A DNA stretch of 64,000 bases from an uncultured Candidatus Cloacimonadota bacterium (GTDB taxonomy: Bacteria > Cloacimonadota > Cloacimonadia > Cloacimonadales > JAJBBL01). Below are positions 8,481-31,000 of the stretch, piece by piece. Numbering within the stretch: the stretch's first letter is position 1; every line of letters starts with the position of its first letter. The position numbers and the translations under genes are program-made. The stretch lies in the NCBI GenBank assembly GCA_964464175.1, contig CAYXFD010000014.1, forward strand, positions 5,035 through 69,034, written 5' to 3'. The notes under the pieces are model-generated. The model did not search any database. It had not been told where the DNA came from and saw nothing but the letters and a program-made list of their open reading frames with translations.

Positions 8481-8864
8481 CGCAGAGGGAGAGGGGAGAC
8501 AAGTGAAGGAAAGCGGTTCCTTGTCAGAAATACTGAGATTGGACATGAAAAAATGTATATCAAGAAAAACCCCTTCTCAAGCTGGCAGAGAAGGGGTTTA
8601 ACTTCGCTGTTTTGACCACCTAAAACAGTCATTTAACAGCTTTTTTTATCGTATCATCTTTACCGATTATCTGGTAACGGGTAAGGGTGAAGCGACAACA
8701 CGATAATAACGACGGTTAGATGCTGCTTCGCTGTATGTTGTTACGGAACTATCCTGGTGCATCAACAATTGCCACCCTTGCAGCGGGTCAGATTCATTAG
8801 TTACCGGCTCAGATCTGGCATATATCTTGTAGGAATTGGCACCTTCCACGGTATTCCAGTTAAG
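8481..8864. repeat. 3' arm of duplicated module, copy 1 (last ~65 codons of giant gene, 3' UTR, terminator, ~85 bp beyond)
   Basis: Colinear high nucleotide similarity to 21712-22098, e.g. cgcagagggagaggggaga-aagtgaaggaaagcgg and taacgacggttagatgctgcttcgctgtatgttgtta. Confidence 0.92.
8565..8599 (-). terminator. Rho-independent terminator of giant gene 1
   Basis: 12-bp stem AAACCCCTTCTC / GAGAAGGGGTTT with a 9-nt loop, ending in a U-run on the minus strand, ~70 bp after the stop. Confidence 0.85.
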
Positions 8865-11800
8865 GTAGAAGACTCCATTCTCCAGGTAAGCGGAGCTGAT
8901 AATCGGAGTTGCCAGCACTGATGCGGTCTCTCTGGTGTGAATATTACTGAGATGGAAATTTATCTCCGGATCAATTCCACTCGGTCTTTCCATATAAAAA
9001 CCGAGTTTGACGGTTCCTTCCACTCCCGAAAGACTTACTATAACCTGTTCTCCGCCGGCTGCAACCGGATCACCATTCAAACCGGAAAGTGAATATATCG
9101 TGTTGCTTGCCGACCAGGTTACACCGTTATCAGAGGATACTACAACTGCAAAGAAGTCCTGCGTTCCAAGTTGAGCCGGTTCTTCGCTATTCAACTCTGT
9201 CACGGCAATATCGAAGACAAGTTCGTAGTCTGCCTCTAAATCGTTCATATCGATCGGAGGGCTTATGAACCAACGGTGAACTGATTCCGAGGTAGCAACT
9301 CTCAATCTGATCCTTGCTCCCCAATCATTTTCCGGATTATTGGCGAAAGATGCACTGACCCAATCTGCGCTTGAGCTTGGCGAAAACTCGCTGTTTTCAG
9401 TTAAAACTCCGAAAGGCTTTTCCCAGTCTGTCGGTGGGAAGGGCATCAGATTAACCGTAAATGGAACTGAAATTGTCGGATCGTAACCGGTTCCGGATAA
9501 AGATATCTGATAATCACTCCTCGGAACAGGAATGTCTTCAGTATTACCATGCAGGGAGGCAGAGGGAGTAATGGAAATGCGTTCGGAGAGTTCTTCACTG
9601 ATCACGATAGAGGCGTTTTTCGAACCTTCCGAGTCAGGGGAGAACCTTACTCCGATAACAGCAGTATCGTGGAGGATCAGATGAACGGTTTCTTCTAAAT
9701 TATCAAGGATGAATTGATCGGGATTATCTCCCGTCAGACTTATCTGCGAAGGATCTATAGTCAAAGTTCCTGTTCCTGCATTACTGATGATGAACTCCTG
9801 GATGACACTTTCCGTATAAAGATTCTGGACACCGAAATCCATCTCATTGAGCGAGACTTCCAATACCGGGTTTTCAGGTATCTCTGAAACCGAGAAATTA
9901 GTTACATAAAAGCGGTTATTGGGAGTTAATCCGAAAGGTCTTTCGGCATAAAAACCGATCTTTACGGTACCGGCAATGCTTTCCAGATCGATCGAAACAG
10001 TCTCGCCGGCAGGAGAAATCGTCTCGGGAAACTCCCAGCTTTTCAGGATATTGTTCTGACTCCAGGTAACGCCGTCATCATAAGAGATAACGACAGCGAT
10101 CAGGTCATTTTCACCTAAATCAGTTTGCTCGGAACCGGCGGAAGGGGTCAAAGCTATATCGAATTCTAAGCGCTTGTTACCGGAACCAAGATCTATGGGG
10201 GGTGTTACCAGCCAGTGATTTCTTGCCCCCACTATTTGAATATGAGCGCTGTTGTTAACTTCACCGGTGTTGGCAAAAGGATGATGGTTCCAGACGGAGG
10301 ATGCCGGAGTCAGTTCACTGTTTTCAGTCAGCAGTCCTGAGTATATTTTCCATTCGAGAGGGGGGAAGAGGGAGCCTGTAAACGCTTCTGTATGTGGCGG
10401 GATTATAGTTCCGTCATAACCAATACCTTCTAATGTTATATCGTATGAAGTTCTTTGAGTATTATCTGACCTGGGGTTTCTTGTCACATTGCTTGAGAAT
10501 CTCACCTCTTCACCAAACGGATCCTCTATTCTTAGTATTGCATTTTTTGCGCCAAGGGAGAGGGGAGAGAAAGAGACGGAGAAGCTGAATGATTCACTCA
10601 TGCCTAAATAGATCGTCTCTAAGAAGTTGTGAGAAAACTCAGCAGCATGGTCTCCAGTTAAAGAAATATCCTCAGGTCTGACTTCGAGTAAACCACCTCC
10701 TGTGTTTGTAATCGTGATCAGTTCGATATTGCTTGTCTGGTTGATATGAACTGCATTAAAGTCAAGATGATCAGGATTATATGAGAATTCAGGAATAACA
10801 GGGAAGGGTTCGAAGTTTACATTCAGAGTAAAAGGAGTAGTTTGTTGCCCTTGACTCGTCGAAACTATCAGATAATAGAAGCCGGGATCAAGAACAAAGC
10901 TTTCGATAGCAGCAGTTGAAGCAAGATTTACAGCATAGGCAAGAAGCGGTGCCGGAGAACCAGGATCAGGTGTATTCTGCATCAGGAAGATGCCCACCAT
11001 GCTCGTTCCAGTGATATCTGCAGAAAACCACCCTTCGTCAAAAACTTCAAACTGAGCGACAAAATCATTACCGCCAATAAACATGCTGTTAGGGAGAATA
11101 TCGGTACTGGAATAATCATTACCGTAATGCTCGGTATGATCCTGATAGTTAGTCAAGGGGAAGCTTTCAATGACAAATGGGTTCTCCCATGTTGAACCGG
11201 CAGGTCTTGGCAAAGCCTCTCCGGTGAGATTTATTGTGGAAAGACTTCTTTGGGAAGCACTGCGGTCTCTTTTACTTTGCTCAAGTGATATATTACTCTC
11301 CCTGAGCGGGATATCACTGCTAAAGATTTCTACATAAGCACTCTTTGGTCCTGCAGTATCAGGGGCAAAAGTTACTCCGATGTTGGCGGTGGTATCTCCG
11401 CTAAGTACTATTGTTTCGGTTATTTCGCTCAGAGTAAAGTCGAGATAGTCATCACCCATAAGCATCACATTCCCCGGGTTTATGGTAATTGTTCCATCTC
11501 CTGCATTGGAAAGAGTGAATTCCTGAACAGTCGATTCGCTGTTTACTCTGATCTCTCCAAAATCATGGGAACTGGGTGTTATGACAAGTTCGGGAGGTAA
11601 GGGCTGCCAAATCGTTATATCGTCTATTGCGAACCCTTCATCAGTTATAGATGAGTTAGAGAGAAATCTGAAACGGAACATGATCATTTCCTGATTGGCC
11701 AGTTCCGAAGGTAAAGCGGTTGAGTAAAGCGTCCAACCGTCGGAAGTGCCTGACCACATAGGCAGGGGGAAAGACCCGATGCCCTCATCATTGTTATAGA

Positions 11801-14800
11801 AACCTTCTGCTACATAAACATAATACCAGGAGGTACCATAATCTATCGAAGTCTCCAGAATAAGATAATCTTGATCTTCTTCCGTGCGGAAATTCATCCG
11901 GACAGAGAGGTGAGGGTTATCCAATTCGGAAAAATCAAAGACGGGAGAAACTAACCAAACATCCGAAAGATTTACATAATCGTATTCGAGAATGGTCATC
12001 CAGCAGGTCGTGCCGCTATACGCTGAATTGATCTCTGCTTGAGCAGGTGTGCCTAACTCCCAGAGATACATGCTGCTGTTTGCGTCTCCGCTCCAGTTGC
12101 CATGACCATTCTCGAAGTCTTCAAAGTAGGGGAATTGACTTATTCGAACAGGCTCTTCTTCATAGGTAAAAGACCAGATCGGACAATTCAGGGCATCTTC
12201 ACGGCTCCTGTTTCCGGTTCTCTCTCTGCCCGGAGGATCGGTCGTAGGGATTACCTGCCAGTAGTAAGTCTGACCAAAAGTGACTTCGAAGAAGGGACTT
12301 ATTTCATGGTAACCCGTTCCACCGACGACGTAGGTTTCGGCATAACCCTGCATATCGGGTTCTGTGCTTGCTCTGACTCTGAACCCGATGGGATCGGAGT
12401 AAGTCGGTGTATTTGAATAAATCCAGGCCAGTTTGGAATGAACCGATACGTTTTCAGAGTTATCGGCAGGGGAGGGGGTGTGAGCGATATAGGGGTATGG
12501 GGGATAATTGACTACTTTAACGTCATCAATGAACCAGTGGTTCAGATCATAGGGAAGACCTGAGAAGACCCAGGCTATGCGCAAACTGTCGGAGCCTACA
12601 CCATGCTCAAGGTCGGTCAGGGTCAAACGGACTGCCTCTTCTATTATAGAACTGCTGACGTTTTCCCATTCCTGAACCGGGTATTCGTCTAATCTGTCGA
12701 TTGCTAAGACTTTCAGGGTAAAAGAGTTAGAATAATGATCACAAGAGTGCTTAAAGGCAAGCTCAAGCTCAACGTAGTCAGATGTATCAAGATAAGGGGA
12801 GTATAAGTAGTATTCGCCTGATGGTTGGTGTGACCACTCATATCTCATCTCCGGTGCCTCTCCACCCGCTAAGCTGCTGTTTGTGACATACCAGTATGTA
12901 TCGTCTCTCTCCCAGTCCGCAGGGATCGTATTGAGAGCTACATCCGAAAAATCTTCATCGAGCAGGAGATTGACGATTCTTTCTATTCCCTCTCCGTAAA
13001 GGGAAACATTGTGAATATCTCTTGTCCGGTTATTATAGGCAGGTTGATTGCTTCTTACAACGGAAAGGTCTCTTGCTCCGTTAAGATTATCGTTTATTTG
13101 CAGGGATGCTTCTTTGAGTCCTATAGAAGTTGGAGCAAAACTTACCCAGACAAATACCGATTCTCCTGAGTATATAGGCAGAGTTTCAGTAAAGGGGATG
13201 TACAGATCGAACTGAGAAGCGTCTATACCGGTGATTTCGAGGTCGGAAGGAGATAATTCAATGACTCCGTATCCTGTATTTGTGATTTCAAATTCAACTT
13301 CTCTGGTGATCCTTCCCTCTTCTATCATACCGAAATCATAAGACAGAGGATAGATAGTCATTTCGGGAGTAGCTGCATCCCAGATTGAGATATCGTCAAT
13401 AGCGATGCCGTCGTAACTGACTGTGGAGTTGGAAACGAAACGAAATCTCAAATAAACTATGTATTCGTTTTCCAAACCGTCTAAGGAAGTACTGAATTCT
13501 CTCCATACTCCATCTATTCCGGGAGAGTTACCTGACCATTTAGGGGGTGATAATGAGCCGCTGCTGCCGGTATTATTGTAAAAGCCAGTATCCCCTGTTA
13601 CTTTCTGCCAGCTGTTTCCCCAGTCAACAGAAGACTCCAGTATCATTCCGTCATAGCTGTCTTCACACCAGATGTTTAACCAGACAGAGAACATAGGGAG
13701 ATGAACTTCCGAAAAGCTCAGCGGGGGAGAGATTAACCAGCTGTCGGCATTATGGTCATAGTCTGCATCTAAATAGGTCATCCAGGCATTAAAATCACTA
13801 TAGGCGCTATTGATGACACTGTTAAATTCATCAGGGCTTCCCAGTTGCCATTGATCATTGCCTGCGTCAGCACCACTATACCAGCCTGCAGCTCCGGCTT
13901 CAAAATTCTCGAAATACGGGTAGTCTGTCAGGACAGCTAAACCGGAAAGAGGAATCTCATGGATCTCTCTTGTTACGGCTTCTCTGGCAATTGGAGTTAT
14001 TTCCGTAATATTCAGATTACCGCTGCGGCTTAGATTGTCGTTTATACTTAGAGCAGCCGTTTTTTGACCTATGCTGCCGGGTAAGAAAGTAACACTGATA
14101 ACAGCAGATTCCGAATTATCAAGATAGGTAGTCTGAGTGATGTTATCAAGATAAAACTCTAAGGCATCGGGTCCGGTTATCTCAATATCCCAGGGATTTA
14201 AAACAATCGTACCATCTCCGAGATTAGTAATAAGGAATATCTGTTCATAAGAAACAGAACCCGGTTCTACTATCCCGAAATGGCCAAAGGGGGGAACGAT
14301 ATGAAATTGCGGAAATACAGGGTCCCAGTGAATAGTACCATAATACCCCGTGTCATGATAATCTTCTCCGGCAAACATTCCCGAGTAATTACTAAAGGTT
14401 ACCGAGTTCCAGGGATTGATACGCTGCACATTGTATAAACTGCCCCAGGTATTCTCAGGAAATCTAGCCCCGGTTATATTGTATTCTCCGGTTGCATTAA
14501 ATCGGAAAAGCGTTCCGCCACTTTCTCCGTTGCGGAAAGTACAGCCGGTGAAGGTGTGGTCGGTATCAACATAGGAACCGTTGCCAATATTGATACCGGT
14601 TAAATCCATCCGCTCGAAAACTGTGTATTCGGCTCCGATAAGAGAGTTATTATTTGCCGTAAAGGAATAATATCCGTCACTGCTGGTAATGAGAACCGGT
14701 TCTGCAGGAGTTCCGAGAGAGTAGAACTGCCCACCGGAATCAATAGTAAGAGATGAATTGTCAAACAAATCAAGAACAGAGTTGCCGGCTAAAGAGAATT

Positions 14801-17800
14801 TTGCATCAGCTCCGACAGTTAAACTACCTTCGAAAGCTAAAGTATGACCATTGAGGTTAATTAGTCCTGAGTCAAGGCTTAATGTCGTCCAACCGGTCAG
14901 ATTGACATCTCCGGAAATGTCGACAATACTTTCCTCACTTTTATCAATCAGTAAGGAACCCATCTGAGCATTTCCTTTCACATAAAAATCTATGTCGCTT
15001 TCATCTATGAGTTTAACTATACCGGTATCATCATTAAAGGAACCGTTTGACTCTACCAGAAAGTCTCCGTGGAATTCCTTTGCTCTTCCGGATAGTCCGT
15101 ATGACCAATCTCCATTTAGAATCTTGAAGTCACCCGTTACAATTGTGTCTTTGAAAGGCTTGACACTACCTCCGGTTTTATCGACAATAAGATCAGCAAA
15201 GAAGAAATGCGCAGCATAGTCGCTATTTAAGGTCTGATTCGTACTGCCGTTCAAAATCACTCTGTTGTTAGTTGCAGCATTGAAACCGGTAGGGTAAGAG
15301 AAGAGGTCATTTCCGTCATAGAGATTACCTGAGAGGCGGAGAGTGTTTAAGGTCTCTGAAGAAGTAATGTCCAGACCGCCACCATCCATTATGCCAAGGT
15401 TACCCCTAACATCAAGGGTAGAACCATCACCCAGCTTCATCAATCCGAAAGTGATGCCCAACCATCCTTTTACTGTCATTGTTGCGTCGTTCATTATCGT
15501 CAATTCTACCAGGTCAGGGGTACTCTTGTTAACTCCAACATTGTTGAATGATTCAGTGGAGACTTGAGCATTGCGGTCGAAATTGAAGTTAACTATGCCG
15601 TTCCCTTCAACAAACCTGTTTGCTCCAGTATCATTTATCCAGCTTCCTTTCAGATTGATAACAGAAGATTCATTTGAGCCGTTCAAATACCCTCCGGTAA
15701 GATTTACATTGCCGTTAACATTCAGGGTATGATTCAGAACACCAAAGGTACCTGAGTTTATCGTCAGATTATTGATAGTTATATCGCTGCTCAGATAACA
15801 CGCGCCTGAGCCGGTTTTGCTGATAATCAGATCATTAAGATAGTTTCCGGCAAGCATCTGTATGTCAGCAGACAAAGGACCGATCAGTTCAATAGCTCCG
15901 CTATTCTGTTGAAAACCAGGTTGCATAGCTCTGATACCCCAACCGACTTTTACCGTACCACCATTGATTGTGAGGTTACTTCCCGTTCCGAATTGCATAC
16001 CGCCGTTGGTGATTTCTAATGAACCTCCATTGATAACGGTCTCTCCGGCAAAGCTATGGTAAGCTCCGGTATAATCAGCCTGTATATCACAAAATCCGCT
16101 GTTGATAGTAAGAGTAGAGCTTGCTCCCTGAAAGAGGGTATCATAAATTGTTATACCTCCGCCAGTGATGAGTAGATTACCATATATAGCCAATTCTGAG
16201 CAGGATAGCGAACTTTCTTCGGAGAGCACAAAGTCTATACTGTTAGTGCTTACGGAAAAGATGCCTTCTACCCATAGGGAAGTGTTGTTCAGTGAAAGCC
16301 TGTTGTTGTCGGCAATAGTAAAGTCCCCGTTTACATCGATAAAACCATTTTCATTGCTGACAGTATTATTGATCTGTGGTGAGACAGGATTGTTTTTTGC
16401 TATTAGCACATTCCCGAATTTCTGTGAACCGGTAATACTATGGATTGCTTTTGGTTCAGTACCTTTGAAAACAACTAAGTTGTTTCCTTGTAAAGATGCT
16501 AAGCCCCCATTGAAGTACCAGTCACCGTAAACATCAATCTGACCGTTATTTACATCTGCAGATGAACCGCTAAGCCATTTGACATCCCGCATTACTTTGA
16601 GCAGATCGTTTGCTGAGTTCATTCTAAGAATACCGGTTATGAGCAGATCATTTTCAATAGTGACTGTCTTGCCGCTGATGTCCAATATTCCTGAGTAGAT
16701 ATCGAGATCATTATCAATTGCAATGTTTGATAAAAGGCTTACGACGGGATTAGATCTATCCTGATTGTTATCTCGTTCTACTCTGGAAGCACTGCCTTTG
16801 TTGATTATCAGATTGTTGAAGGCAGTGGCGTTTGCTGAGAAGATTGAGCTGTTCTCTGCTCCGGCAATTTCTATAGTTCCATAAGCAAAATAGAGATTCA
16901 ATCTTTCGTTTCTGAAGTTCCCATAGGAAATAATTTTCCCTCCTGAGATACCGTTAACCAGACTGTAACCATTATCCTCGAAAGTTATCCCGTTATCTAT
17001 GATGTTGAGATTACCTCCGCTCATTGTCAGGTTACAGTTACGATTGAATGGTATTCTGGCATCTCCGTTGCCGCCATAGATATTCAGGTTACCATAAGAA
17101 ATATTGAAATCAGCTTCCAGATTGATTGTTTGGGCTGAATCCTGATAAAGATTTATGGTTCCGGACTCGAGAATATAGCCCCCTTTTACTCCGTTCCCTT
17201 CGAGATCATAAGCTGTAAAAATGCCGTTGTTCCGTACTCTGATACCACCGGATGTCCATTTGTAGATATTGCACTCAACTTCGGAATCATTAATAATCAG
17301 GTTACCACTGCTGCTGTTCTCAAGTGTATCAAAGCTGACGTCCTGAATGATCTGATCTCCTGTTCCGCTGAATTTTACAGTGCTGTTAGCTCCGGCGAAA
17401 TTGGTCGGTAATCCTGACAGGTTGTGCCAGTTACCCTTTATCTCAATAATTCTGTTATGACCAAACATTACCGTTTGATTACGAAACTCAATATTGCCGT
17501 GTAATAAGATATTGGAGGCAAGAGTGATGAATGAGTTTTCCAGAGCCAGATTGTTTATTCTACTGCCGACAGAGATTGAGAAAGCACTATCGGAGATACC
17601 TTTGAGGATTAGTTCGCCGGAGTTGAAAACGATATCTCCAGTAACCTGATAAAGAGTATTGATGGTTATATCACCATTATAGTCGTTTTGAAAACAGCCT
17701 TCTGCAGAGACTACTAATCCCTGCTGTAAAAATAGATCAGAAGTTGAGTCAGATAAGTAGATAGCCCTGGCACTACCTGATTTATTGACAGTTAGCTTCC

Positions 17801-20612
17801 TGATAGTAGCCACAGGGGAAGAATTGAGCAGAATCTCAGAGTCAGAAGAGCCGGAAAAGGTCAGGTTAAGTCTGTCTAAACTGACAGTTGCTCCTTGCAT
17901 TATGTTAAAGTCTCCGGCAACATTCATCTCGATTGGATTCGCTATAATCACTGATCCTAATTCACCAACGCTTAGACTACCACCAAGGTTGGTTGTTGCT
18001 GTGTTTCCCAAAAAGGTAAGCAATCCGCTAACTGCGATATTTCCGGTTACATTGATGGTCGGTTCAGTTAGTGTGAGTGTATTGTTAGGGGTGATAATAA
18101 TAGAGCCGGCATTAATCGTGGTGTTTGTCAGGCTGCCGGCATATTGACTGAAGATTTTTAATCCTCCCCCTATGTTAAATGTCAATGGCTGATGATCACT
18201 ATAAATCCTTCCTGTAATAGTAAAATCGGTATTGATATTAGTCGTGCTGTTGTAAAAAGTAACGTCAGAGTTCTTCAAGATAGTTAAACTGTTGATGTCG
18301 ATAACAGTGCCTGAGGGTACTATTGGCATATTATTGCTAAGGGACGTAATGATAACATCGGTATTCTGTCCCGGAATAGTGTTCATAGCCCAGTTATCCG
18401 GATTGTTCCAGTCTTCATCAACACCGCCGATCCAGCTCCCTTCCGAGAAGTATGATATATCTAATGAAGCATGAGCAGACTCGTTACTCCAAACGACAAG
18501 AGCATAATGCCCGGCTTGAGATATATTTACAGTACTTTCAGCTAAACCGTCTTGCATGTTAGCAGAAAAGAGGTTATTACTCTTAGCTTTATAAGGGTCG
18601 TCATTTGAGCTGTACAATGCCATGCCCAGATTTTGATGACCTTCACTATGAATTCCTGCGAAATGATACTGCCCCGGACTCAGATAGACGCTATATATCT
18701 TCACTACTTCATTAGGTTGCATGACCAGAGTTGTTTTTTGGTTTTTTGTCAGATATTCATTCCCTACAGCTCTGGTAACATTAGCGGGGGCATTGTTTGT
18801 AATGTTTCTAATCTTAAAACCTCTTTCATGGGGAGAAACTAATGACTGGTCAAAAACGATGAAATTCGCTCCCTGCACTGCAAGAGATTTTTCAACAGTG
18901 CTGTTGAATGTTGGGCTGTTGTGCAATTCCAGATAAAACCTCGCTGCCGGATCAAATCCTCTGACCCCGATCACTTCCCAGACATTGGATTGATTGATGG
19001 TATTGCAGGCGATATAGTACTGTGGATTATTGTCCGTTTGCTGCGAATAGTTTATGTCTTCAACTGTTCCGCCGGGTCTAATTCGGAAATTTCCCTTAGA
19101 ACCGTCTCCACCGAGGATATCAGTTCCATCATAAGCCTGAACTGCTATTCTCCCCTGTTCTGTTGGTGTGCCGGGAATAATCCAGTCATACCAGTACTGA
19201 TCGGTTATCCCTTCTGCCAGAACTTCCCAGGTCGATAGAGAACCGCTTCCTCCGTCAGAGCTGTAGAATATTCTGAAGTCCTGATTAAGAGAAGATGCTT
19301 CCCAGAGTATTTCCCGTGCTTCTCCGCTGAACCATTCTTCTGCTCCATTTTCATCACCGTGCCAATCAGTAACCCCGTGTGGATGTAGAATTTTTAGATG
19401 AATACCATACCCATCACCGGGCAGTATTTTACTTACATCATCGAATTCACTGGAATGAAGATTCTCTATCCAGGGTCTATTAGGATCATGAACAGCTACG
19501 TAAGTGCTGTCGGCTGCATATCCCATTGCCGTTACAGAATGTCTCGGTATATTGCTGATAGTAGGTCTGTTTTCGTTGATACAACTGACCTGATAGTTAT
19601 AGTTAAATGATCCTCCGCCTGCATAGGTGCTGCCGGTATAGCCGTTCTGATTTAAGATATTGCAGATTCCCGGAGCGGTCATATTGGATTGTGTACCGCC
19701 GGTACTTTCGTTTGTTTCCATTACTATTGCTAATTCCTGAGTAAGATTAGGAACCCGGTGATCATGATGTTCCTCGACAGGATCCCATCTGAAAGCATGA
19801 TAATCGATAAGATTGGAGTATATTTGCGAGGAGTGTACGGCATTTACTGAGTTATAGTCATACCAACCTAATAGAATAGCCCCTGCTGTCGGCGAGCAAC
19901 CGTAAGACCATTGATAAAAGGGCATATATTCATGATTTGAGATATAGGTATAAGAACGTGAGACGGTTCTTCCATTGTTCAGGAATTCGTCCCACTCTCT
20001 ACTGAACTCGGACAGCTCGGAGGGTTCTTTTAGGCTTCTCAGGTCTTTTACAGTATCCCGGAATTGATCTTCGTCCATCAAGCCTGCCGGAGGCAGGATC
20101 TTTAGATAGAGCTTTTCCCCTTTTGCTAATACTTCATACCAAATATAAGCCTGATTAATGTAGATAATATTGCCAAAACTGTATTCAGATATTCCTTCCT
20201 GAGCGAGAATTCTCTCTCTCACCCGGTAAGTACTGTATTCGTGAGAAAGTCCTTTAGAATACTGTCTGATAACCGGCATATCCTTCCGGGCACTGACAAC
20301 CATGTTAGCAAATTCTTCGCCTACCCAATCAGCATGCCATAATCCTTCTGCCTCGTTGTTTATCCTTTCCAGTAAAATTTCACGGTCAGGAAACTGATTA
20401 TCAACAGAAAAGTTAAATCGCCAGCCTATCAGTTTACCATTTTCATCGTGATAGGGCAGAGGCTCATCACTATAGCAATCACCCCAAAGATGTTTCGCGT
20501 TGCGGAAAGCAATCTCAGTTGCCTCTGTCAAAGATATGGTTGTGTCATCACCAAAAAGGGTGGTTGCAACAACCAGCAACAATACCAGAAAATATAGAAT
20601 TCTCTTAATCAT
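8667..20612 (-). CDS. Giant secreted protein (3981 aa): signal peptide, prodomain, papain-fold C39/C10-like cysteine peptidase, Ig and PPC-like domains, long beta-helix, alternating choice-of-anchor-D/ASH Ig, MAM/cleaved-adhesin-like and FN3-like domains, conserved C-terminal domain
   Basis: AGGAGG SD; hydrophobic N-terminus; FYQWSYGCSPTAGA (C239), RHSVTAMGY (H358), VHDPN (D376); WIGGVDEDWNNPDNW motif opening the beta-helix; repeated DFG..V.....F.I.N.G.G Ig motifs and YFE.FE...W...WLxSP jelly-roll motifs. Confidence 0.88.
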   Translation of the reverse strand: MIKRILYFLVLLLVVATTLFGDDTTISLTEATEIAFRNAKHLWGDCYSDEPLPYHDENGKLIGWRFNFSVDNQFPDREILLERINNEAEGLWHADWVGEEFANMVVSARKDMPVIRQYSKGLSHEYSTYRVRERILAQEGISEYSFGNIIYINQAYIWYEVLAKGEKLYLKILPPAGLMDEDQFRDTVKDLRSLKEPSELSEFSREWDEFLNNGRTVSRSYTYISNHEYMPFYQWSYGCSPTAGAILLGWYDYNSVNAVHSSQIYSNLIDYHAFRWDPVEEHHDHRVPNLTQELAIVMETNESTGGTQSNMTAPGICNILNQNGYTGSTYAGGGSFNYNYQVSCINENRPTISNIPRHSVTAMGYAADSTYVAVHDPNRPWIENLHSSEFDDVSKILPGDGYGIHLKILHPHGVTDWHGDENGAEEWFSGEAREILWEASSLNQDFRIFYSSDGGSGSLSTWEVLAEGITDQYWYDWIIPGTPTEQGRIAVQAYDGTDILGGDGSKGNFRIRPGGTVEDINYSQQTDNNPQYYIACNTINQSNVWEVIGVRGFDPAARFYLELHNSPTFNSTVEKSLAVQGANFIVFDQSLVSPHERGFKIRNITNNAPANVTRAVGNEYLTKNQKTTLVMQPNEVVKIYSVYLSPGQYHFAGIHSEGHQNLGMALYSSNDDPYKAKSNNLFSANMQDGLAESTVNISQAGHYALVVWSNESAHASLDISYFSEGSWIGGVDEDWNNPDNWAMNTIPGQNTDVIITSLSNNMPIVPSGTVIDINSLTILKNSDVTFYNSTTNINTDFTITGRIYSDHQPLTFNIGGGLKIFSQYAGSLTNTTINAGSIIITPNNTLTLTEPTINVTGNIAVSGLLTFLGNTATTNLGGSLSVGELGSVIIANPIEMNVAGDFNIMQGATVSLDRLNLTFSGSSDSEILLNSSPVATIRKLTVNKSGSARAIYLSDSTSDLFLQQGLVVSAEGCFQNDYNGDITINTLYQVTGDIVFNSGELILKGISDSAFSISVGSRINNLALENSFITLASNILLHGNIEFRNQTVMFGHNRIIEIKGNWHNLSGLPTNFAGANSTVKFSGTGDQIIQDVSFDTLENSSSGNLIINDSEVECNIYKWTSGGIRVRNNGIFTAYDLEGNGVKGGYILESGTINLYQDSAQTINLEADFNISYGNLNIYGGNGDARIPFNRNCNLTMSGGNLNIIDNGITFEDNGYSLVNGISGGKIISYGNFRNERLNLYFAYGTIEIAGAENSSIFSANATAFNNLIINKGSASRVERDNNQDRSNPVVSLLSNIAIDNDLDIYSGILDISGKTVTIENDLLITGILRMNSANDLLKVMRDVKWLSGSSADVNNGQIDVYGDWYFNGGLASLQGNNLVVFKGTEPKAIHSITGSQKFGNVLIAKNNPVSPQINNTVSNENGFIDVNGDFTIADNNRLSLNNTSLWVEGIFSVSTNSIDFVLSEESSLSCSELAIYGNLLITGGGITIYDTLFQGASSTLTINSGFCDIQADYTGAYHSFAGETVINGGSLEITNGGMQFGTGSNLTINGGTVKVGWGIRAMQPGFQQNSGAIELIGPLSADIQMLAGNYLNDLIISKTGSGACYLSSDITINNLTINSGTFGVLNHTLNVNGNVNLTGGYLNGSNESSVINLKGSWINDTGANRFVEGNGIVNFNFDRNAQVSTESFNNVGVNKSTPDLVELTIMNDATMTVKGWLGITFGLMKLGDGSTLDVRGNLGIMDGGGLDITSSETLNTLRLSGNLYDGNDLFSYPTGFNAATNNRVILNGSTNQTLNSDYAAHFFFADLIVDKTGGSVKPFKDTIVTGDFKILNGDWSYGLSGRAKEFHGDFLVESNGSFNDDTGIVKLIDESDIDFYVKGNAQMGSLLIDKSEESIVDISGDVNLTGWTTLSLDSGLINLNGHTLAFEGSLTVGADAKFSLAGNSVLDLFDNSSLTIDSGGQFYSLGTPAEPVLITSSDGYYSFTANNNSLIGAEYTVFERMDLTGINIGNGSYVDTDHTFTGCTFRNGESGGTLFRFNATGEYNITGARFPENTWGSLYNVQRINPWNSVTFSNYSGMFAGEDYHDTGYYGTIHWDPVFPQFHIVPPFGHFGIVEPGSVSYEQIFLITNLGDGTIVLNPWDIEITGPDALEFYLDNITQTTYLDNSESAVISVTFLPGSIGQKTAALSINDNLSRSGNLNITEITPIAREAVTREIHEIPLSGLAVLTDYPYFENFEAGAAGWYSGADAGNDQWQLGSPDEFNSVINSAYSDFNAWMTYLDADYDHNADSWLISPPLSFSEVHLPMFSVWLNIWCEDSYDGMILESSVDWGNSWQKVTGDTGFYNNTGSSGSLSPPKWSGNSPGIDGVWREFSTSLDGLENEYIVYLRFRFVSNSTVSYDGIAIDDISIWDAATPEMTIYPLSYDFGMIEEGRITREVEFEITNTGYGVIELSPSDLEITGIDASQFDLYIPFTETLPIYSGESVFVWVSFAPTSIGLKEASLQINDNLNGARDLSVVRSNQPAYNNRTRDIHNVSLYGEGIERIVNLLLDEDFSDVALNTIPADWERDDTYWYVTNSSLAGGEAPEMRYEWSHQPSGEYYLYSPYLDTSDYVELELAFKHSCDHYSNSFTLKVLAIDRLDEYPVQEWENVSSSIIEEAVRLTLTDLEHGVGSDSLRIAWVFSGLPYDLNHWFIDDVKVVNYPPYPYIAHTPSPADNSENVSVHSKLAWIYSNTPTYSDPIGFRVRASTEPDMQGYAETYVVGGTGYHEISPFFEVTFGQTYYWQVIPTTDPPGRERTGNRSREDALNCPIWSFTYEEEPVRISQFPYFEDFENGHGNWSGDANSSMYLWELGTPAQAEINSAYSGTTCWMTILEYDYVNLSDVWLVSPVFDFSELDNPHLSVRMNFRTEEDQDYLILETSIDYGTSWYYVYVAEGFYNNDEGIGSFPLPMWSGTSDGWTLYSTALPSELANQEMIMFRFRFLSNSSITDEGFAIDDITIWQPLPPELVITPSSHDFGEIRVNSESTVQEFTLSNAGDGTITINPGNVMLMGDDYLDFTLSEITETIVLSGDTTANIGVTFAPDTAGPKSAYVEIFSSDIPLRESNISLEQSKRDRSASQRSLSTINLTGEALPRPAGSTWENPFVIESFPLTNYQDHTEHYGNDYSSTDILPNSMFIGGNDFVAQFEVFDEGWFSADITGTSMVGIFLMQNTPDPGSPAPLLAYAVNLASTAAIESFVLDPGFYYLIVSTSQGQQTTPFTLNVNFEPFPVIPEFSYNPDHLDFNAVHINQTSNIELITITNTGGGLLEVRPEDISLTGDHAAEFSHNFLETIYLGMSESFSFSVSFSPLSLGAKNAILRIEDPFGEEVRFSSNVTRNPRSDNTQRTSYDITLEGIGYDGTIIPPHTEAFTGSLFPPLEWKIYSGLLTENSELTPASSVWNHHPFANTGEVNNSAHIQIVGARNHWLVTPPIDLGSGNKRLEFDIALTPSAGSEQTDLGENDLIAVVISYDDGVTWSQNNILKSWEFPETISPAGETVSIDLESIAGTVKIGFYAERPFGLTPNNRFYVTNFSVSEIPENPVLEVSLNEMDFGVQNLYTESVIQEFIISNAGTGTLTIDPSQISLTGDNPDQFILDNLEETVHLILHDTAVIGVRFSPDSEGSKNASIVISEELSERISITPSASLHGNTEDIPVPRSDYQISLSGTGYDPTISVPFTVNLMPFPPTDWEKPFGVLTENSEFSPSSSADWVSASFANNPENDWGARIRLRVATSESVHRWFISPPIDMNDLEADYELVFDIAVTELNSEEPAQLGTQDFFAVVVSSDNGVTWSASNTIYSLSGLNGDPVAAGGEQVIVSLSGVEGTVKLGFYMERPSGIDPEINFHLSNIHTRETASVLATPIISSAYLENGVFYLNWNTVEGANSYKIYARSEPVTNESDPLQGWQLLMHQDSSVTTYSEAASNRRYYRVVASPLPVTR

Positions 20613-20693
20613 TAATCCTCCTGTGGACTAGTAATCGCTTTATTTTTTTTGAATGAATTTACATTAACTTCTCGGCTTTGGTTGAGGCTCTCT

Positions 20694-21092
20694 CTATTGT
20701 GAGATGTTGTTCCCGAATTCTGTTTTTTGGGTCTGTTCATCATTCTCCTGTTCTGGCTTAGGGGAGAATAGTGAGTTCAATTGATTCAAACGGTAGGGGT
20801 GTTTCAGAGAGGTAAAGACTCCATAACGGACATTATCTATCGTATTGCAAAGACCTGAATCGCTCACAATAACAACTCTTACAGCGGGATAGGTCTTGTT
20901 AATGTAACGGATAATGCTGAAATCATCAAGATTCGATAAACAATAAAGCACAGCCTCAATAGCTCCTCCGGCGAGTATCTGAAAAATTGCCTGCTTAGTT
21001 ACTGCTGCATAGACTTCACACTTATAGGTCTGGAAGTAGTCTCTCAATTCTGTTTCTTCAGACTGATTTGCTTTAGCAATGAGAATCTTCAT
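20694..21092 (-). CDS. Degenerate (Asp-less) response-regulator receiver domain protein, copy 1
   Basis: CheY-like pattern MKILIA...AVLY(C)...YPAVRVVIVS...G...LKHPY; acidic pocket and phospho-Asp absent; TAAGGA SD; near-identical duplicate at 32829-33227. Confidence 0.78.
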   Translation of the reverse strand: MKILIAKANQSEETELRDYFQTYKCEVYAAVTKQAIFQILAGGAIEAVLYCLSNLDDFSIIRYINKTYPAVRVVIVSDSGLCNTIDNVRYGVFTSLKHPYRLNQLNSLFSPKPEQENDEQTQKTEFGNNISQ

Positions 21093-21173
21093 CTTTTATC
21101 CTTACTATTTTTCTTTGGTATCTCTTATGCATTCTTATCTTCTAATGGTTACAGATATCTAATTTAGACAATA

Positions 21174-21190
21174 ACCAACATTTGTGCCAA
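21174..21190 (-). promoter_or_regulatory. Putative sigma-54 (-24/-12) promoter, module 1
   Basis: Minus strand reads TTGGCAC-AAATG-TTGGT versus consensus TGGCAC-N5-TTGCW (-12 imperfect); same position in copy 2; sigma-54 activator encoded in the locus. Confidence 0.68.
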
Positions 21191-21210
21191 TTGGTTATTG
21201 TGTTCTGAGG

Positions 21211-21220
21211 CAATAAGTTA
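21211..21220. promoter_or_regulatory. IHF-like site between promoter and enhancer, module 1
   Basis: CAA-TAAG-TTA matches the CAA-N4-TTR core of the IHF consensus; copy 2 has CAA-GAAG-TTA at the same 27-bp offset from the -24 box. Confidence 0.4.
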
Positions 21221-21254
21221 AGGATTTATCGATAGTTCAGGTATTTTTCCTCAT

Positions 21255-21359
21255 TATCCGGTTTCGGATAGTGGTACGGCAATATAGCAGCGTAAGTAGT
21301 AATGGAGTTGCAAGTTAAGGTTTTTATCCGAATTCGGATAACATATCCGATTTCGGATA
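21255..21359. promoter_or_regulatory. Three palindromic TATCCG-N4-CGGATA sites, putative bEBP enhancer (UAS), module 1
   Basis: Perfect inverted repeats at 21255-21270, 21325-21340 and 21344-21359, about 65-170 bp upstream of the -24 box. Confidence 0.78.
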
Positions 21360-21711
21360 GTGGGTTCAGGGGAAGTTCGACTCTATTTTCAGTTAGAGAT
21401 AGAAAACTATGCTAAAATATTCAGTAGCTTTTGATTATTGAGACCAAGCAAAGCAATTTCTACGATACTAAAACTTTCTCAAAGCCTGCACTTTTAGCAG
21501 GTAAAATTTTCGCTATTAAAAGAACAGAACCGACAGTAGTGAGTTCATGCTTATGCCTATGCAGCTCTTTTTTACTCAGTATCAAAACCGGGTTCATGAA
21601 GCTAAAGATAATCAGAGGAAGAGACATAAAACTATCCAAAAGATGTAAAGATTCAATATCTTTCTTCCGTTGAGTGTTTCGAAAGTTTATGAACAACTGA
21701 ATATGATATCT

Positions 21712-22098
21712 CGCAGAGGGAGAGGGGAGAGAAGTGAAGGAAAGCGGCTCTTTGTCACATTTAATCAGAGTTGGCATGAAAATGTATATATCAAGAAAAA
21801 ACCCCTTCTCCAGCTGGCAGAGAAGGGGTTTTCAGTTTGCTGTTTTGACCAGCTAAAAACAGTCCAATACAGCGTTATTTTATTAGATCATGTCTACCGG
21901 TTATCTGGTAACGGGTAAAGGTGAAGCTACTACCCGGTAATAACGACGGTTAGATGCTGCTTCGCTGTATGTTGTTAAGGAACTATCCTGCTGCATCAAC
22001 AATTGCCACCCATTCAGTGGGTCAGTTTCATTAGTTACCGGCTCAGACCTGGCATATATCTTGTAGGAGTTGGCACCTTCCACAGCATCCCAGCTTAA
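21712..22098. repeat. 3' arm of duplicated module, copy 2
   Basis: Homologous to 8481-8864. Confidence 0.92.
21796..21832 (-). terminator. Rho-independent terminator of giant gene 2
   Basis: Stem AAAACCCCTTCTC / GAGAAGGGGTTTT ending in a U-run on the minus strand. Confidence 0.85.
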
Positions 22099-25000
22099 AT
22101 AGACGGTACTCCCTGCTACACTGATAGTAACATTCTGAGGGGATTGAAGAGCTCCGGAAACTTGCGGAGTTGCTTCAACGGTGTTAGAATGTCCCGATTC
22201 TCCTTCTTCGTAAACTGCCGTAACGTAGTACTCGTAAGTAACGCCATTTACAACATTATTATCCGTATATTCCGTTCCTTCCACCGGTTCTTCGTTGATC
22301 TGTTCACTATTCCGGTAAACATTGTAACCCAGGAAAGAGATGCGGGAGCTTCTCTGTTGGAAATAGTCCTTATCTGAGTTCAAATTTATATCGTTTCCGT
22401 CCGGCCTTACAGGAGGGTTAATGTCATCCCAGCTCAGATCAACGGCTCCGTCCCTCGCTGTAGCTGCAAGGTTTTGAGGAACCGGTAAACTGAGAGTGGT
22501 AAAAGACATAACTTCACTCCAGGCTCTGCCTCTCGGATTGTCTGCAAAGGCAATGTAGTAAATGTCACTTCCCTGTTCCAGGTTTTCGGCTAAGGCGGAA
22601 AAACTCTCCCCGGGACTGCTGGAATTAACTAATAAACCAGAATTAGCCGGGTCAGGATCGGTGTCATAGTAGAAACCTTTTTCCAGGATGGGGAGATCTC
22701 CCGTTGAGGTTATTTGAGCATTTAATACTGCCTCAAAATAGTTAACCTCTGTAGCAGCATTTGTTATAACAGCAGGAGAGTCTCCACCCAGAATAATCCC
22801 ATCCAGATGCCAGCCGGTTATGTTATAGCTATTACCGTCGAAAACCCAGGCAAGTCGCAGATTGTCAGCTCCCACTCCATGTTCTGCTGTGGTCAAAAGA
22901 TAATCCAGTTCTTGAGCAGCGAGACTGGAATCCACATTCAACCATTCCTGAATCAGGTAGCTGTCAGTATCAACGATGGAATAGATCCGGAGATCGAATA
23001 CACCGTCAAGATGATCCACCTGCTGTTTGAACGTTAGATCGATCTGACTGAGACCGGAGGTATCGAAAAGAGGAGAGAGGAGAGTCACTTCACCGATGAT
23101 GTGAGGATCGAAACTGAAGAGCATTTCAGGGCTTTCAGAACCGGCTTGGCTGGTGCCGCTGACCCACCAGTTGAGATGACTGCTTTCCCAGCCTGCGGGG
23201 AGGCTTCCCTCATCTTCGATACTGAAGCCTTCATAGTAGGGAACATTTTCTGTTACAAGTTGATAGCCAAAACCGGTTATCCCAATGGAATGAATTTCGC
23301 GCTCAAATGACCTGCTGTGGTTTTTGATAAATAATTCCCGACCCGGTGCACTTCCCTCAACAATATTGATCACGGCTTCTTTTTGTCCGGTTTCATTGGG
23401 TCTGAATTTAGCTCCGATCGTTGTACTCTGACCGGAACTCAATTCAACAGGAGAACTTAGGTTGATCAGTTCAAATTCAGCCGGATGCCAGCCAGCGAGA
23501 GAAATATCATCCGGACTGAGATACAACAATCCTTCTCCCGTATTGGTTATCTCAAAATACTGAACAGGTGAACTCTCGTCCACTTCTACTCTCCCGAAGT
23601 CATGTGAGGAAGGATTGAGAGTAAGAATCGAATACTCACGTTCCCAAATCCGGATATCATCAATAGCAAATCCTTCTTCTGTGACCGATTCGTTAGAGGC
23701 AAAACGGAAACGGAGCCGTACCTGCGGTTGGTGTGCCAAAGATGAAAGAGAAGTGCTGAATTCTGTCCAGCCTCCGCTATTGCCAGACCATTTGGGTACG
23801 TTAAGCGGTCCCAGTAAAGAGGTATTGTTGTAAAATCCTGTATCGGCTTCCACATAGAACCAGTTGCTGCCGCCGTCTATTGTAGCTTCCAGGATCATAC
23901 CGTCATAATCAGGCTCAGTCTGATGATTTATCCGGACGGAAAACATCGGCTCATCCAAAGCTGTAAAATCAAAGAGTGGGGAACGGAGCCAGATATCAGC
24001 ACCGTTCATATAATTTCCCCCTAAGTTTGTCATCCAGGCATAATCTCCGCTATAGGCACTGTTGATAACCGTCTGAGACGGTTCTCCCTGCTGCCAGATA
24101 TTCATACCGGAGATCCTGCCCCCTTTCCAGCCGCCGTCACTCAGTTCGAAATCTTCGAAATAGGGAAAAATTTCAATAGCAGTTGCATCTGCCAGGAGGG
24201 TGAATGACCAGATAGGGCAGTTTTCCGCCGAACTGCGGATGGAAGCATTTTCTCGCAGCACATTATACTGCAAGGGGTGTGATAACTCCGGATTCTCGTC
24301 CCGAAGGAGACTGCGGGTGTGTTCTTCTCCGGAAGCTGATGGGATGACCTGCCAGTAATAGGTCTGACCATATTCAAGTGTGAAAAATGGAGGCATGGAA
24401 TGGGTTCCGGGACCACCCCAAAGTACATCTGATTGATAGGTCGCGAGGGTTGGATCTGTTCCGGCTCTGATCTGATAAACTACCGGATCGGTATAACCCT
24501 CCTGTGAAGTGTAAGTCCATTCCAAAAAAGTCTCCATAGGAACATCGATAGCTCCGTCTTCAGGTTGCGGAGAATGAGCTGTTGCGGGCGGAGCGATGGT
24601 GTTCCAGATGCGGAAATCGTCAATAGCGATTCCTTCATCTACATAAGCTTCACCGTAATCTCCGTCGGAAGTAAAACGAAAACAGAACCAAACCTGAGGT
24701 TCATTTGCTAAAAACGGTAAAGAAGTACTGTACTCTGTCCAGATACCGTCAACTTCTTCTGTTCTGCCGGACCAGTTAGGATGGCTGGGAGCCGGTAAGC
24801 TCATCCGGTTGTAGAATCCGTCATCTCCAATCACTTGCTGCCAACTGCTGTTATCGAGAGAGTATTCCAGGATCATTCCGTCGTAAGAGGCTTCACTCCA
24901 GATATTCAGCCAGACCGAGAGGTTGGGATCATCCAATTCGCTGAAATCGAAAACCGGAGATTTGAGCCAGGTATCAGCTTCATTTTCATAGTTTTGATCT

Positions 25001-28000: not shown

Positions 28001-31000
28001 GCATCCTCATTGAGTACAACGTTTCCGGTGAAGCTGAAATAAGTACCGGTATAAGCTCTGGTGAGCTTAACCAGACTTTCATCATAAATCATCAGAGAAC
28101 CTTCTGCAGGTAGAGCAAACGTGCCCATACAGATCAGCTCGGAATAGCTGGCTACAATTAATTCGTCTTCAATTGTAACAGTACCATTGATCTTGAGTGA
28201 ACTGTAATCCAGAAGAGTCAGTTTCGATTCGTTATTCAAAGTAAAATTGCCCGAAACAGTCAAATCACAGTCATTCAACTCCACATTACTTTCGTTTTGG
28301 ATGTTGAAATAACCCAGGACGCTGAGCGCTGCAGGGCTGTAAACATATAGATTTGCCAAATCCGGCTTATCGACGATCAGGTTTCCGAATGTAGTTCCGG
28401 TAGCATTATTATCAATATTGGCATAATTAAATCCCCCTGCCGTCATACCCAAGCCAAAGAATCGCAGAGTTGTATCGGCAGCCATCTGGAAGCCGGCATC
28501 CTCTTCGATGATCAGCCAGTTACCCAGCTCTATCATACCTTGGGTAATCTGAGAACTTGAGCCTTCAAAAAAGGTTAAACTCCGGTCAACGAGCAGATTG
28601 TCGCTGGGGTTATTCATCAGCAGATTACCATATACGTCCATGCCGCCATCGATTGTGAGAGCGTTATCATTGAGATCGAGATCACCGGCTCCCAAAATCA
28701 GAGAACCTCTCAGATGAAGAGGGCTGATCAGAATCACCCTGTTGGTTCGGTCATTGGTCTCTTCTCTGCTGATCGAGGTTTCATCTTCCCTTGTGCTTGT
28801 TTTATTGACAATGATGCCCTGTAAATAGCTCTGTGGATGAAAAGAGACAAAACCTGTTCCTGGTCCATAAAGCTCGATATATCCCATCTCCGGTCTGAAG
28901 TTGTTTCTCTGGCAGATAAAGTTCCCCACGGTGCGGATGATACCAGCAGTGATGTCTTCGGTAAAGGAGTAGGTTGAATTGACGATCTGGATGTTGCTTG
29001 TCTTGAAATCCAAAACTCCACCACTCATCTCTATGCTTGCATCGGCAGCATTACTCCATTGGCTGGTGGCAGCACCACCGGAGACGGTCATCAATCCATC
29101 ACGGATAACCAGTTCACCATTGAGATCTGTGCGCTGGGCACTATCCTGATTAAGATGAAGCTCACCCTGATCCACGACAGTCTTGCCAACGATGCCGTTG
29201 CGGATCATATCCTGAACCACAAGATTTCCTCCGGTAATGTGCAGAGCCCCGGATTGCATATCAAAGAAGTCGCAGGATGATTCTCCCGAAGGGAAGTGTA
29301 CCTCAGCCAGAGGATTGTTGATCGTGAACCGGTAGAAATCCTCACCGGAACATATCTGTTCTCCATCTCCAGAGAAGACGACATTGCTGGTACCTTTGAT
29401 AAAGCCGCCGGGACGAACATTGTTGATCCAGTCACCTTTTAGATGGATGTTGTATGCTCCGGGACGTAAAGTACCTCCATTGATGATCAGATCACCGGTA
29501 AGCTGTAAGGAACTGTTCAGATCAAAGAAAGAATCGACATCGATCTCGACATTGTGAAAAATATCACCCCCTCTGATCGGCATTACATTGATTGCTCCGG
29601 AGAAGGCGAGAGTACCATTGATAAATTCAAGATTTCCCAGATGCTGCATGGTGGCTTGCACTTTCACTGCTCTGACCGATTCAGATCTGAAGATGGTATT
29701 ATTATCGATCTTGAGATGCCCAGAAACGACGAGATCTGCCTGAGACAGAGTACTGACGGTAACGGATGCTCCAAAGTTTGTATTGATGGTAAGGTTATGG
29801 AAAGTGAAATCAGGCGAGTCGTTGTAAATAAATGAATCAGAGATGTAACCCAGCTTAAGCAGAGAGGAACTGCTCAAGCTTGAAACAGCACCGGAGCCGA
29901 TGATCAAATCACCCCGGCAGGTAATTTCGCCGGCACTGCTGACGTTCAGAACACCTGTCATCCCAAAGTAGAGCGATTCATGAACCGTAAGCCTCGAAGT
30001 ACTGTGATTCAAAAGCAGAAGCCCATCAACCGTCATGTCCTCCTCGACGGTCAGATTTGCTCCCTGTCCAATCGTCAGACTCTTACCATGCTCGATTGTA
30101 ATGTTTCTGATAGCTGCCGCCTGACTGGGATTGAGAATCAAGGGAGAACTATGGGCATTGGCAGGGATTATTACATCGTTGCTGGCAGAGGGCACAAAAC
30201 CCTGACTCCAGTTCTGGGGATTGAACCAGTTGTTTGATACAGCACCTGTCCAGGTCATTTCATCGGTTATATTGATTGAGTAGGTAAAAGCTCCCGTGTG
30301 TTGAGAGCTTACCACCAGGGCATACCAACCTGCATTCAGAGATGTCACGATGTAGTTGAACCGCTTGAATGCAGACAATCCAGTTCGATTACCGGCAACA
30401 GCATTGTGATAACTGTAAAGTCCACTCCCATCAGCTTTATAGAGGCCAAAATCGAGTGGAGTATTACCGAAACTGAAGGCATAGCTTCCAGGTTCCAGAT
30501 AGACATTATATACTTCTGCTGCCTTATTGTTAGGCCAGTTCTTGTTATAAGCTTGGTTGACCTGGATCTGATTGTTGCTATTGCCATCAAGATTGGCATA
30601 AGCCTGGCTGCCGCCATTACTGGTGAATTTGATGCCATAGTCGTGCGCAGGGAGTTCGTAGTTATTTATCAGCAGATAATTCGTTTTAGTTGTTGCGACT
30701 GACTGGCGTACGACGCTGCCATATTGATCATTATCGTAGAGATCAATAGTCCATCTGTCATACTGGTTGGGTTCACTGTTATCGGTAAGATCATCTCTGA
30801 TACCGATTACCTTCCAGCCCGGTGCATTCAGCTCAGCCCGGTAAAAATCCGGACTGCGGATTATGCTGTGAACGTTAGAGGGTAGATTGCCATATTGGGG
30901 ACCGCCGGAGAGGATGCTGAAGTTGCCAAAGCTGCCGTCTTCGGCAATTACTTCATTGGTAGCGCTATCGACAAGCTTGATATAGATCCTGCCCCAGGTG

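Follow-up and report, generated by a model that had tools for sequence, protein, structure and literature searches.

Arginine-rich loop inserts in two giant secreted proteins of a Cloacimonadota bacterium as candidate processing sites for RgpB-type proteases

The 64,000-nucleotide stretch of DNA analyzed here, referred to in the following as the window, is part of contig CAYXFD010000014.1 of an uncultured Candidatus Cloacimonadota bacterium. It carries two adjacent open reading frames (ORFs) on the minus strand that encode giant secreted proteins: g1 (8667–20612, 3981 aa) and g2 (21901–32493, 3530 aa). The two are paralogues, with a top BLASTP local alignment of 42% identity that covers 25% of the query region. 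Both have a signal peptide at the N-terminus, followed by a weakly Peptidase_C39_2-like domain, a long beta-helix-like region and a domain array. This array makes up the C-terminal half and consists of choice-of-anchor D (Ig/ASH-like), choice-of-anchor J (MAM-like), FN3-like and FN3 domains, the FN3-like module being marked by the motif YYWQVIP…CPIWSF. The choice-of-anchor D model NF012200 matched g1 with 167.6 bits in five stretches and g2 with 47 bits (cut-off 45), and the choice-of-anchor J model NF038128 matched them with 84.5 and 59.6 bits, respectively (cut-off 30). A first-pass annotation had pointed out 13 Arg-rich loops inserted into these proteins and suggested that they are removed by an Arg-specific protease, as in the gingipain polyproteins of Porphyromonas. 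Here we describe the loops, their conservation and the proteases that might act on them.

All 13 loops were found where the annotation had placed them. Six lie in choice-of-anchor D domains, each as the F–G loop (residue spans are in the protein numbering of g1 or g2; nucleotide spans are window positions on the minus strand). Those of g1 are at 13955–14040 (D domain 1, residues 2191–2220, Arg-rich, ending …VTR-EIHEIPL), 13010–13085 (D domain 2, 2510–2535, …RTR-DIHNVSL, both border Arg also present in the homologue P0010), 11235–11315 (D domain 3, 3100–3126, …SQR-SLSTINL, three Arg aligning with Arg of P0010), 10440–10520 (D domain 4, 3365–3391, …TQR-TSYDITL) and 9510–9595 (D domain 5, 3673–3701, …VPR-SDYQISL). 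The one in g2 is at 23285–23350 (3048–3070, …FER-EIHSIGI), and its border Arg recurs in the homologues P0008 and P0152. Four more loops lie in FN3-like domains: the g1 YYWQVIP–CPIWSF loop at 12185–12245 (2790–2810), an F–G loop with an Arg at position −6 from the Cys, and the YYW…CPIW loops of the first, second and third FN3-like domains of g2 at 26595–26670 (1942–1967, border Arg also in P0008 and P0065), 25195–25285 (2403–2433, border Arg also in P0008) and 24215–24335 (2720–2760). Two inserts occupy a homologous site in the beta-helix regions: an Arg-rich turn insert in g1 after …LIINK (16745–16795, residues 1273–1290) and its counterpart in g2 after …IIVNK (28735–28800, residues 1232–1253). 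The last is in the B–C loop of a g2 FN3 domain, between LSW… and FLGYNVYR (22310–22425, residues 3357–3395).

The annotation had expected the loops to be disordered and the following strand to complete the same fold, which is what AlphaFold2 predicted for both loops that were modelled. In a model of g2 residues 2625–3085, calculated from an 11-row alignment, the mean predicted local distance difference test (pLDDT) score was 76.5, with the domain cores at 80–95. Just two internal segments longer than three residues scored below 50, and both corresponded to loops: model residues 100–129 (g2 2724–2753, window 24235–24324) and 424–440 (g2 3048–3064, window 23302–23352). Each is followed by a confidently predicted strand, E137–142 and E443–453, respectively, that completes the same sandwich, and the junction Arg, R2753 and R3065, sit at the boundary between order and disorder. 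In the third FN3-like domain, the low-pLDDT stretch stops exactly at the Arg at position −6. From the predicted strand order and the positions of the motifs, the D-domain and YYW…CPIW inserts are F–G loops that precede the last strand, as the annotation had it for the D domains, whereas the FN3 insert is in the B–C loop.

The 13 loops comprise 360 residues, 46 of them Arg (12.8%) and three Lys (0.8%), compared with 197 Arg (2.8%) and 122 Lys (1.7%) in the 7151 residues of g1 and g2 outside the loops. The noted Arg richness is thus borne out; the Lys poverty is real as well, but it is shared by the secretome generally. Fisher tests gave an odds ratio of 5.2 for Arg against all other residues and of 9.5 for Arg against Lys (p 1.5e-6), with p-values that are inflated because the loops had been chosen by eye. 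A blind scan of g1 and g2 for at least four Arg per 25 aa yielded 11 windows, six of which were inside loops. The loops are also rich in Ser, Asp, Glu and Asn, and poor in aromatic residues (Tyr 1.9, Trp 0.3 and Phe 1.7%, against 4.7, 2.3 and 4.8% outside). With 28 Asp and 32 Glu they are net acidic, which rules out a basic patch for polyanion binding.

We then surveyed the whole genome (2.9 Mb, 56 contigs), taking every ORF, for inserts defined solely by their flanking motifs. FN3 inserts of at least 11 aa, present in 28 of the 51 matched domains, contained 12.5–25% Arg and 0–3.4% Lys. YYW…CPIW loops of at least 16 aa (7 of 10) contained 12.6–17.8% Arg, and the three shorter loops were Arg-free. 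For the D domains, a hidden Markov model that included the loop columns gave only 13 spanning hits out of 330, and the model was remade without the loop for the counts used here. In 218 canonical D domains, drawn from 30 proteins among the representative hits and this genome, the loop at this site was at most 9 aa long, typically S-N-D-P-D-E-N, with 0.7% Arg. The loops of g1 and g2, at 16–30 aa, are thus genuine inserts.

The loop sequences had been described as unrelated to each other. The loops are not 13 independent insertions: the six D-domain loops of g1 and g2 can be aligned with one another, with an Arg immediately before the last strand in all six, and were therefore inherited within a subfamily. 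Among 150 representative homologues we found six further long-loop D domains (two each in P0012 and P0010, one each in P0152 and P0008), all with the junction Arg, bringing the total to 12/12. Among the 218 spanning D hits it occurred three times, probably in the long-loop g1, P0001 and P0152 rows. Long YYW…CPIW loops had an Arg exactly six residues before the Cys in 12 of 13 cases and an Arg within the first nine residues in 12 of 13, against no Arg at all in seven short loops. P0008, an orthologue colinear with g2, shares 53% identity with it over 2036 aa, and P0010 aligns to g1 with 42% identity; by eye, both border Arg were retained in seven of eight loops compared with these two proteins, while the loop interiors varied in sequence and length. 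Conservation of the border Arg in homologues, loss of which the annotation had named as grounds for abandoning the idea, was thus observed at most sites.

The FN3 inserts were less regular. Of 45 long inserts, 43 had an Arg in the last six residues and 27 in the first six, with the Arg maximum two to three residues before the strand. The proposed bracketing by Arg is firm at the C-terminal border; at the N-terminal border it holds for the D and YYW…CPIW loops but not for the FN3 inserts. Adjacent Arg pairs occurred at 0.64 of expectation in the long FN3 inserts. Such dispersed Arg fit a single-Arg protease better than a dibasic one, and a dibasic (kexin- or furin-like) site can be ruled out because RR is under-represented.

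Although the loops are present in both giants, as first reported, they are not confined to them; similar inserts occur throughout the secretome of this lineage. The large secreted ORFs of the genome are strongly acidic, with about 1–2.5% Lys and 2–4% Arg, compared with 5.8% Lys and 4.9% Arg for the proteome. We counted 247 Arg clusters in 119 long low-Lys ORFs and 150 in the shuffled sequences, compared with 558 and 543, respectively, in 174 high-Lys ORFs. The clusters recurred in the FN3 B–C loop before LLGYNVYR, in the YYW…CPIW loop, at the prodomain junctions of C25 proteases and in C-terminal tails. Arg-rich inserts at the FN3 B–C site were found in many further secreted proteins, and like inserts are present in relatives from the same family and in genome G014, which belongs to another family. 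One polyprotein that is an Rgp orthologue has Arg-rich inserts of its own. On contig 9 of the genome (36705–55484), a 6259-aa ORF contains about 30 repeats like RS(I/T)STPTLTNIRIRNTTSPVR together with many Arg-rich FN3 inserts.

The genome was searched for C25 (gingipain) and C11 (clostripain) genes, as had been suggested, and encodes 12 Peptidase_C25 domains, one C11 and five C10 proteases. When the 12 C25 domains are aligned, all of them have the catalytic Cys and seven have the His. In L006 and L035–L038, Trp or Tyr takes the aligned place of the catalytic His while the Cys is kept, and from their sequences these paralogues are possibly non-catalytic. One of the C25 domains is closest to PorU. 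Two proteins, L008 (a 1354-aa ORF) and L005 (a 2253-aa ORF), matched the whole catalytic and Ig-like part of RgpB (4ief) with E-values of 4.8e-94 and 5e-89, respectively, and also matched the RgpB structure 1cvr; against Kgp the E-values were only 1e-17 to 1e-18. Both retain the equivalents of Glu152, Asp163, Thr209-Gly210-His211-Gly212, Val242-Ala243-Cys244, Gln282, Trp284 and Met288. The roles of these residues, including that of Asp163 as the charge anchor of the S1 pocket, are taken from PMC9559808. The alignments begin at the mature N-terminus of RgpB (YTPVEE compared with YTPLEE), and in the L005 ORF the YTPLEE start is preceded by …SATR. Since the catalytic residues and the S1 pocket that binds Arg are kept in both L008 and L005, the presence of a secreted Arg-specific protease in this genome is well supported at the level of sequence.

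Orthologues of Rgp were found in 39 of 41 relatives (E 1e-30 or better) and, across the phylum sample, in 134 of its 151 genomes (E 1e-60 or better). Among named records, the Rgp gene of this genome was best matched by Cloacimonadota metagenome-assembled genomes. RgpB-type orthologues with 40–60% identity (loci L123–L146) were also seen in metagenome-assembled genomes labelled Zixiibacteriota, Ignavibacteriales, Acidobacteriota, Planctomycetales, Polyangiaceae, Neomarinimicrobiota, WOR-3 and Lentimicrobiaceae.

We propose that the loops are inserts, flexible and exposed at the surface, that selection has retained in F–G and B–C loops and in one beta-helix turn; their occurrence at four structural sites and across many proteins suggests such retention. 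The reading that we favor, with a probability of roughly 0.45 judged from sequences and models, is that they are built-in substrates of the organism's own secreted RgpB-type C25 proteases. An Rgp-type protease would cut after the conserved Arg at the point where the loop rejoins the fold, and further cuts after other loop Arg would trim the loop away. The nicked domain would remain, its last strand (strands A and B in FN3) held solely by beta-sheet contacts. Each giant would thereby become a chain of non-covalently associated fragments, as in the RgpA/Kgp/HagA complexes. The analysis establishes the starting points of this scheme: the inserts exist, they are biased toward Arg and predicted to be disordered, their junction Arg is conserved, and the genome encodes Rgp orthologues whose Arg pocket is intact. 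The pattern is real and broader than first reported, and the mechanism is our proposal.

A comparison of genomes with and without Rgp gave a weak signal. We scanned GYN[VI]YR FN3 domains in six genomes with an Rgp match at 1e-60 and in 13 of the 17 that had none. Among the Rgp-positive genomes, G014 had 16 long FN3 inserts (75 Arg, 12 Lys) and G020 had two (four Arg, two Lys), and the single FN3 match of G068 could not be anchored. Only three of the 13 genomes without a match at this threshold had long inserts: G050 (four inserts; eight Arg, 15 Lys), G081 (one; three Arg, four Lys) and G031 (three; four Arg, one Lys), the last of which shows part of an Rgp match at the end of a contig. Where Rgp is missing, Lys is thus as common in long inserts as Arg, which is weakly consistent with cleavage.

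A number of observations weigh against the cleavage reading. The contrast with Rgp-negative genomes rests on five inserts in two fragmented genomes of related lineages. The Rgp-positive genomes G006, G023 and G024 had only short loops in their matched FN3 domains, so that Rgp, although present in 134 of the 151 genomes, does not entail inserts. Neither g1 nor g2 has a T9SS (type IX secretion system) C-terminal domain of type A by Pfam, NCBIfam or comparison of tails, and their arrival where Rgp acts is therefore uncertain. The beta-helix inserts do lie at a homologous site in both genes, as had been claimed, but P0008 has an insert there without the conserved border Arg, the sole exception among the loops compared with the orthologues. 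Column by column, loop Arg were conserved in 12 of 30 cases and other loop residues in 44 of 187, a difference that is not significant (p 0.07), and Arg outside the loops were conserved in 36 of 67 by the same count. Aligners tend to pair identical residues in gappy regions, and we therefore regard the gap-free anchor distances as the more reliable evidence. The junction Arg may have a structural role. At the FN3 site, it also occurs beside short loops (e.g., DSLRT-VLGYNVYR) and in short-loop relatives and thus belongs in part to the domain family as such. A share of 12–13% Arg is close to the usual total basic content of disordered segments, so that avoidance of Lys could account for part of the bias. 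That protease and substrate meet, that the loops are cut and what the cut would do is wholly what we infer.

Many of the same observations would be explained if the loops were tolerated, disordered polyampholyte spacers with no role in cleavage, Arg being the default base in a secretome that avoids Lys for an unrelated reason and the junction Arg stapling the loop base to nearby conserved acidic residues (TTD…, …DAED). Conserved acidic residues do flank the inserts, the loop interiors drift freely in sequence and length, loop-wide conservation of Arg is not significant, FN3 junction Arg accompany short loops too, and Lys is depleted in all large secreted ORFs. Arg codon usage is equal inside and outside the loops, as is the GC content; nothing points to an origin of the inserts by repeats or slippage at the DNA level. 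Against this, the folded parts of the two proteins have a ratio of Arg to Lys ten-fold below that of the loops, so that background Lys avoidance alone is not the cause. Moreover, D and YYW…CPIW domains with short loops fold without a junction Arg (3/218 and 0/7 with one), and the persistence of similar inserts at four structural sites in many proteins suggests selection. We consider this neutral reading, one of the two main rivals, less probable than cleavage.

The other main rival, which we hold improbable, is that the variable B–C and F–G inserts are ligand-binding surfaces of adhesins, comparable to the complementarity-determining regions (CDRs) of antibodies. These two loops share one pole of FN3 and Ig-like domains, their sequences and lengths differ among paralogues and orthologues, and the modules are of adhesin type, the choice-of-anchor J model resembling the Kgp K1 adhesin. 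A conserved Arg at the loop base would also have a parallel in antibodies, where an Arg sits at the base of CDR-H3. The loops, however, are depleted in Tyr, Trp and Phe, rich in Ser, Asp, Glu, Asn and Arg, and net acidic, a composition that does not fit a paratope; they are predicted to be disordered, and the same composition recurs in the beta-helix turn and at protease prodomain junctions.

We regard it as very improbable that another enzyme (the C39-like domain, the C11 protease, community proteases or an Arg-modifying enzyme) targets the Arg, even though g1 has a papain-like N-terminal domain with Cys and His, the genome has one C11 and five C10 genes and a tricorn-like S41 peptidase gene lies directly downstream of g1, since the nucleophile Cys is missing from g2, neither the C39-like nor the C10 family is known for Arg specificity, and, among the proteases considered, a demonstrable Arg pocket is found solely in the Rgp orthologues.

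The Peptidase_C39_2-like region of g1 (19479–19922, minus strand, residues 231–378) has the Cys of a GCSPTA motif and a conserved His. The match to PF13529 was 22 bits in g1 (E 2.5e-4), below the cut-off of 24, and E 0.055 in g2; the Atlas gave leads only. Both Cys and His occur in g1, P0156 and P0157, whereas g2 has Ser in place of the Cys (SSETSA instead of GCSPTA; about 31770–31830, minus strand, residues ~222–242) and keeps the His. Because Ser replaces the putative catalytic Cys, g2 may be a pseudo-protease. The prodomain ends pointed out previously, GRTVSR-SYTY and NRHVLNR-HDYTY, do exist, but their junction Arg is not present in two homologues with 31–33% identity, and removal of the prodomain at Arg in g1 and g2 is a guess. 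An AlphaFold2 model of the N-terminal 450 residues from a four-row alignment had a mean pLDDT of 47.7, with residues 193–450 near 30, and was not used for naming the fold. A first scan of contigs with the g1 N-terminus confirmed no relative, and a sequence search of the PDB with the N-terminus returned chance hits only.

At the other end, g1 closes with an FN3-like domain (8670–8954, minus strand) ending in …RRYYRVVASPLPVTR, with a near-identical copy in g2 at 21904–22158; the shared domain reads …GANSYKIYARSEPV…RRYYRVVASPLPVTR. It had no match in Pfam or NCBIfam. By phmmer, related domains close at least 11 other ORFs of the genome, including an RgpB orthologue (contig 20, 2253 aa), and none of these ORFs in our listing of tails had the usual T9SS tail. 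The FN3-like C-terminal domains often carry short Arg-rich tails after …[FY][FY][RK]V.A. This domain may be an undescribed sorting or anchoring domain. By analogy with known systems one might go further and imagine the Rgp proteases as maturases of the whole secretome: cuts at Arg loops just ahead of terminal strands would yield strand-complemented chains whose modules could swap strands with those of other cut molecules, in the manner of type V pilus assembly, or be shed on demand, the surface would be remodelable, and the shared C-terminal FN3-like domain would deliver the giants together with one Rgp. We consider this scenario a long shot.

Directly downstream of g1 (5213–8317, minus strand) lies the gene for the S41 peptidase, a 1034-aa tricorn-like protein with PD40, Tricorn_C1 and Peptidase_S41 matches, followed by that of a large beta-helix protein that extends past the window edge. 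Just upstream of g2, at 33586–37346, are genes for a sigma-54 activator of the response-regulator type and for a TPR histidine kinase. Sites resembling sigma-54-type −24/−12 promoters occur in the intergenic regions upstream of g1 (21174–21189) and g2 (33308–33323) on the minus strand, with one mismatch each; the window has three such matches where chance alone would give 1.45, which is suggestive only. Full-length homologues of the giants are scarce: a search with g1 residues 2100–3981 gave seven proteins, g1 and g2 included.

To our knowledge, gingipains have been studied almost solely as virulence factors of one oral pathogen. Rgp orthologues are near-universal in the phylum sample and also occur in genomes labelled as several other phyla, and in some families numerous secreted proteins bear the Arg-studded, predicted-disordered inserts at fixed structural sites. 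If the inserts are cleavage sites, Arg-gingipains would be ancestral housekeeping enzymes that mature the surface proteins of the bacterium itself, and the inserts would provide a sequence signature for predicting processing sites. Our search of the available literature on gingipains, C25 proteases and surface proteins in Cloacimonadota, limited to main texts, found no description of such inserts.

The closest known system is that of RgpA, Kgp and HagA in P. gingivalis. The RgpA and Kgp precursors are cut into domains that stay together non-covalently (PMC5266723); the annotation's further statement that the fragments are joined by complementing strands is not confirmed in the available part of that source. 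Here, too, the genome that codes for the giants has genes for an Arg-specific C25 protease, with the catalytic residues, the S1 Asp and the R-YTP prodomain junction kept, and the candidate substrates are large modular surface proteins. A model of the choice-of-anchor J domain resembles the cleaved-adhesin domain K1 of Kgp (4itc; rank 30, E 1.3e-6, TM-score 0.66 on target). The giants differ in that Cleaved_Adhesin (PF07675) was not among their Pfam hits, and in having a C39-like domain but neither a C25 catalytic domain nor a T9SS type-A C-terminal domain. The candidate sites are stereotyped Arg-rich inserts within FN3 and Ig-like folds, processing is predicted, and the host is probably an environmental Cloacimonadota bacterium.

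In type V pili, RgpA/B cut loops at Arg46 of FimA and Arg49 of Mfa1, beside a terminal beta-strand, leading to strand exchange between subunits, according to PMC13655056. The conserved Arg of g1 and g2 are likewise in loops adjoining the last strand of beta-sandwich domains. Unlike the pilins, the giants have no FimA/Mfa-type match among their Pfam and NCBIfam hits and no lipoprotein Cys in their signal peptides, their loops come before the C-terminal strand or between B and C instead of after an N-terminal anchor strand, and there is no sign of polymerization.

The domains themselves are of known kinds. Those of g1 and g2 match both NF012200 and the MAM-like NF038128 above the cut-offs, and a fold search led to ASH-domain proteins of the ciliary central apparatus and to MAM and Reelin modules. 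What sets the D domains of the g1/g2 subfamily apart from the canonical ones is the F–G loop, which is at most 9 aa with 0.7% Arg in the latter and holds a 16–30 aa Arg-rich insert in the former.

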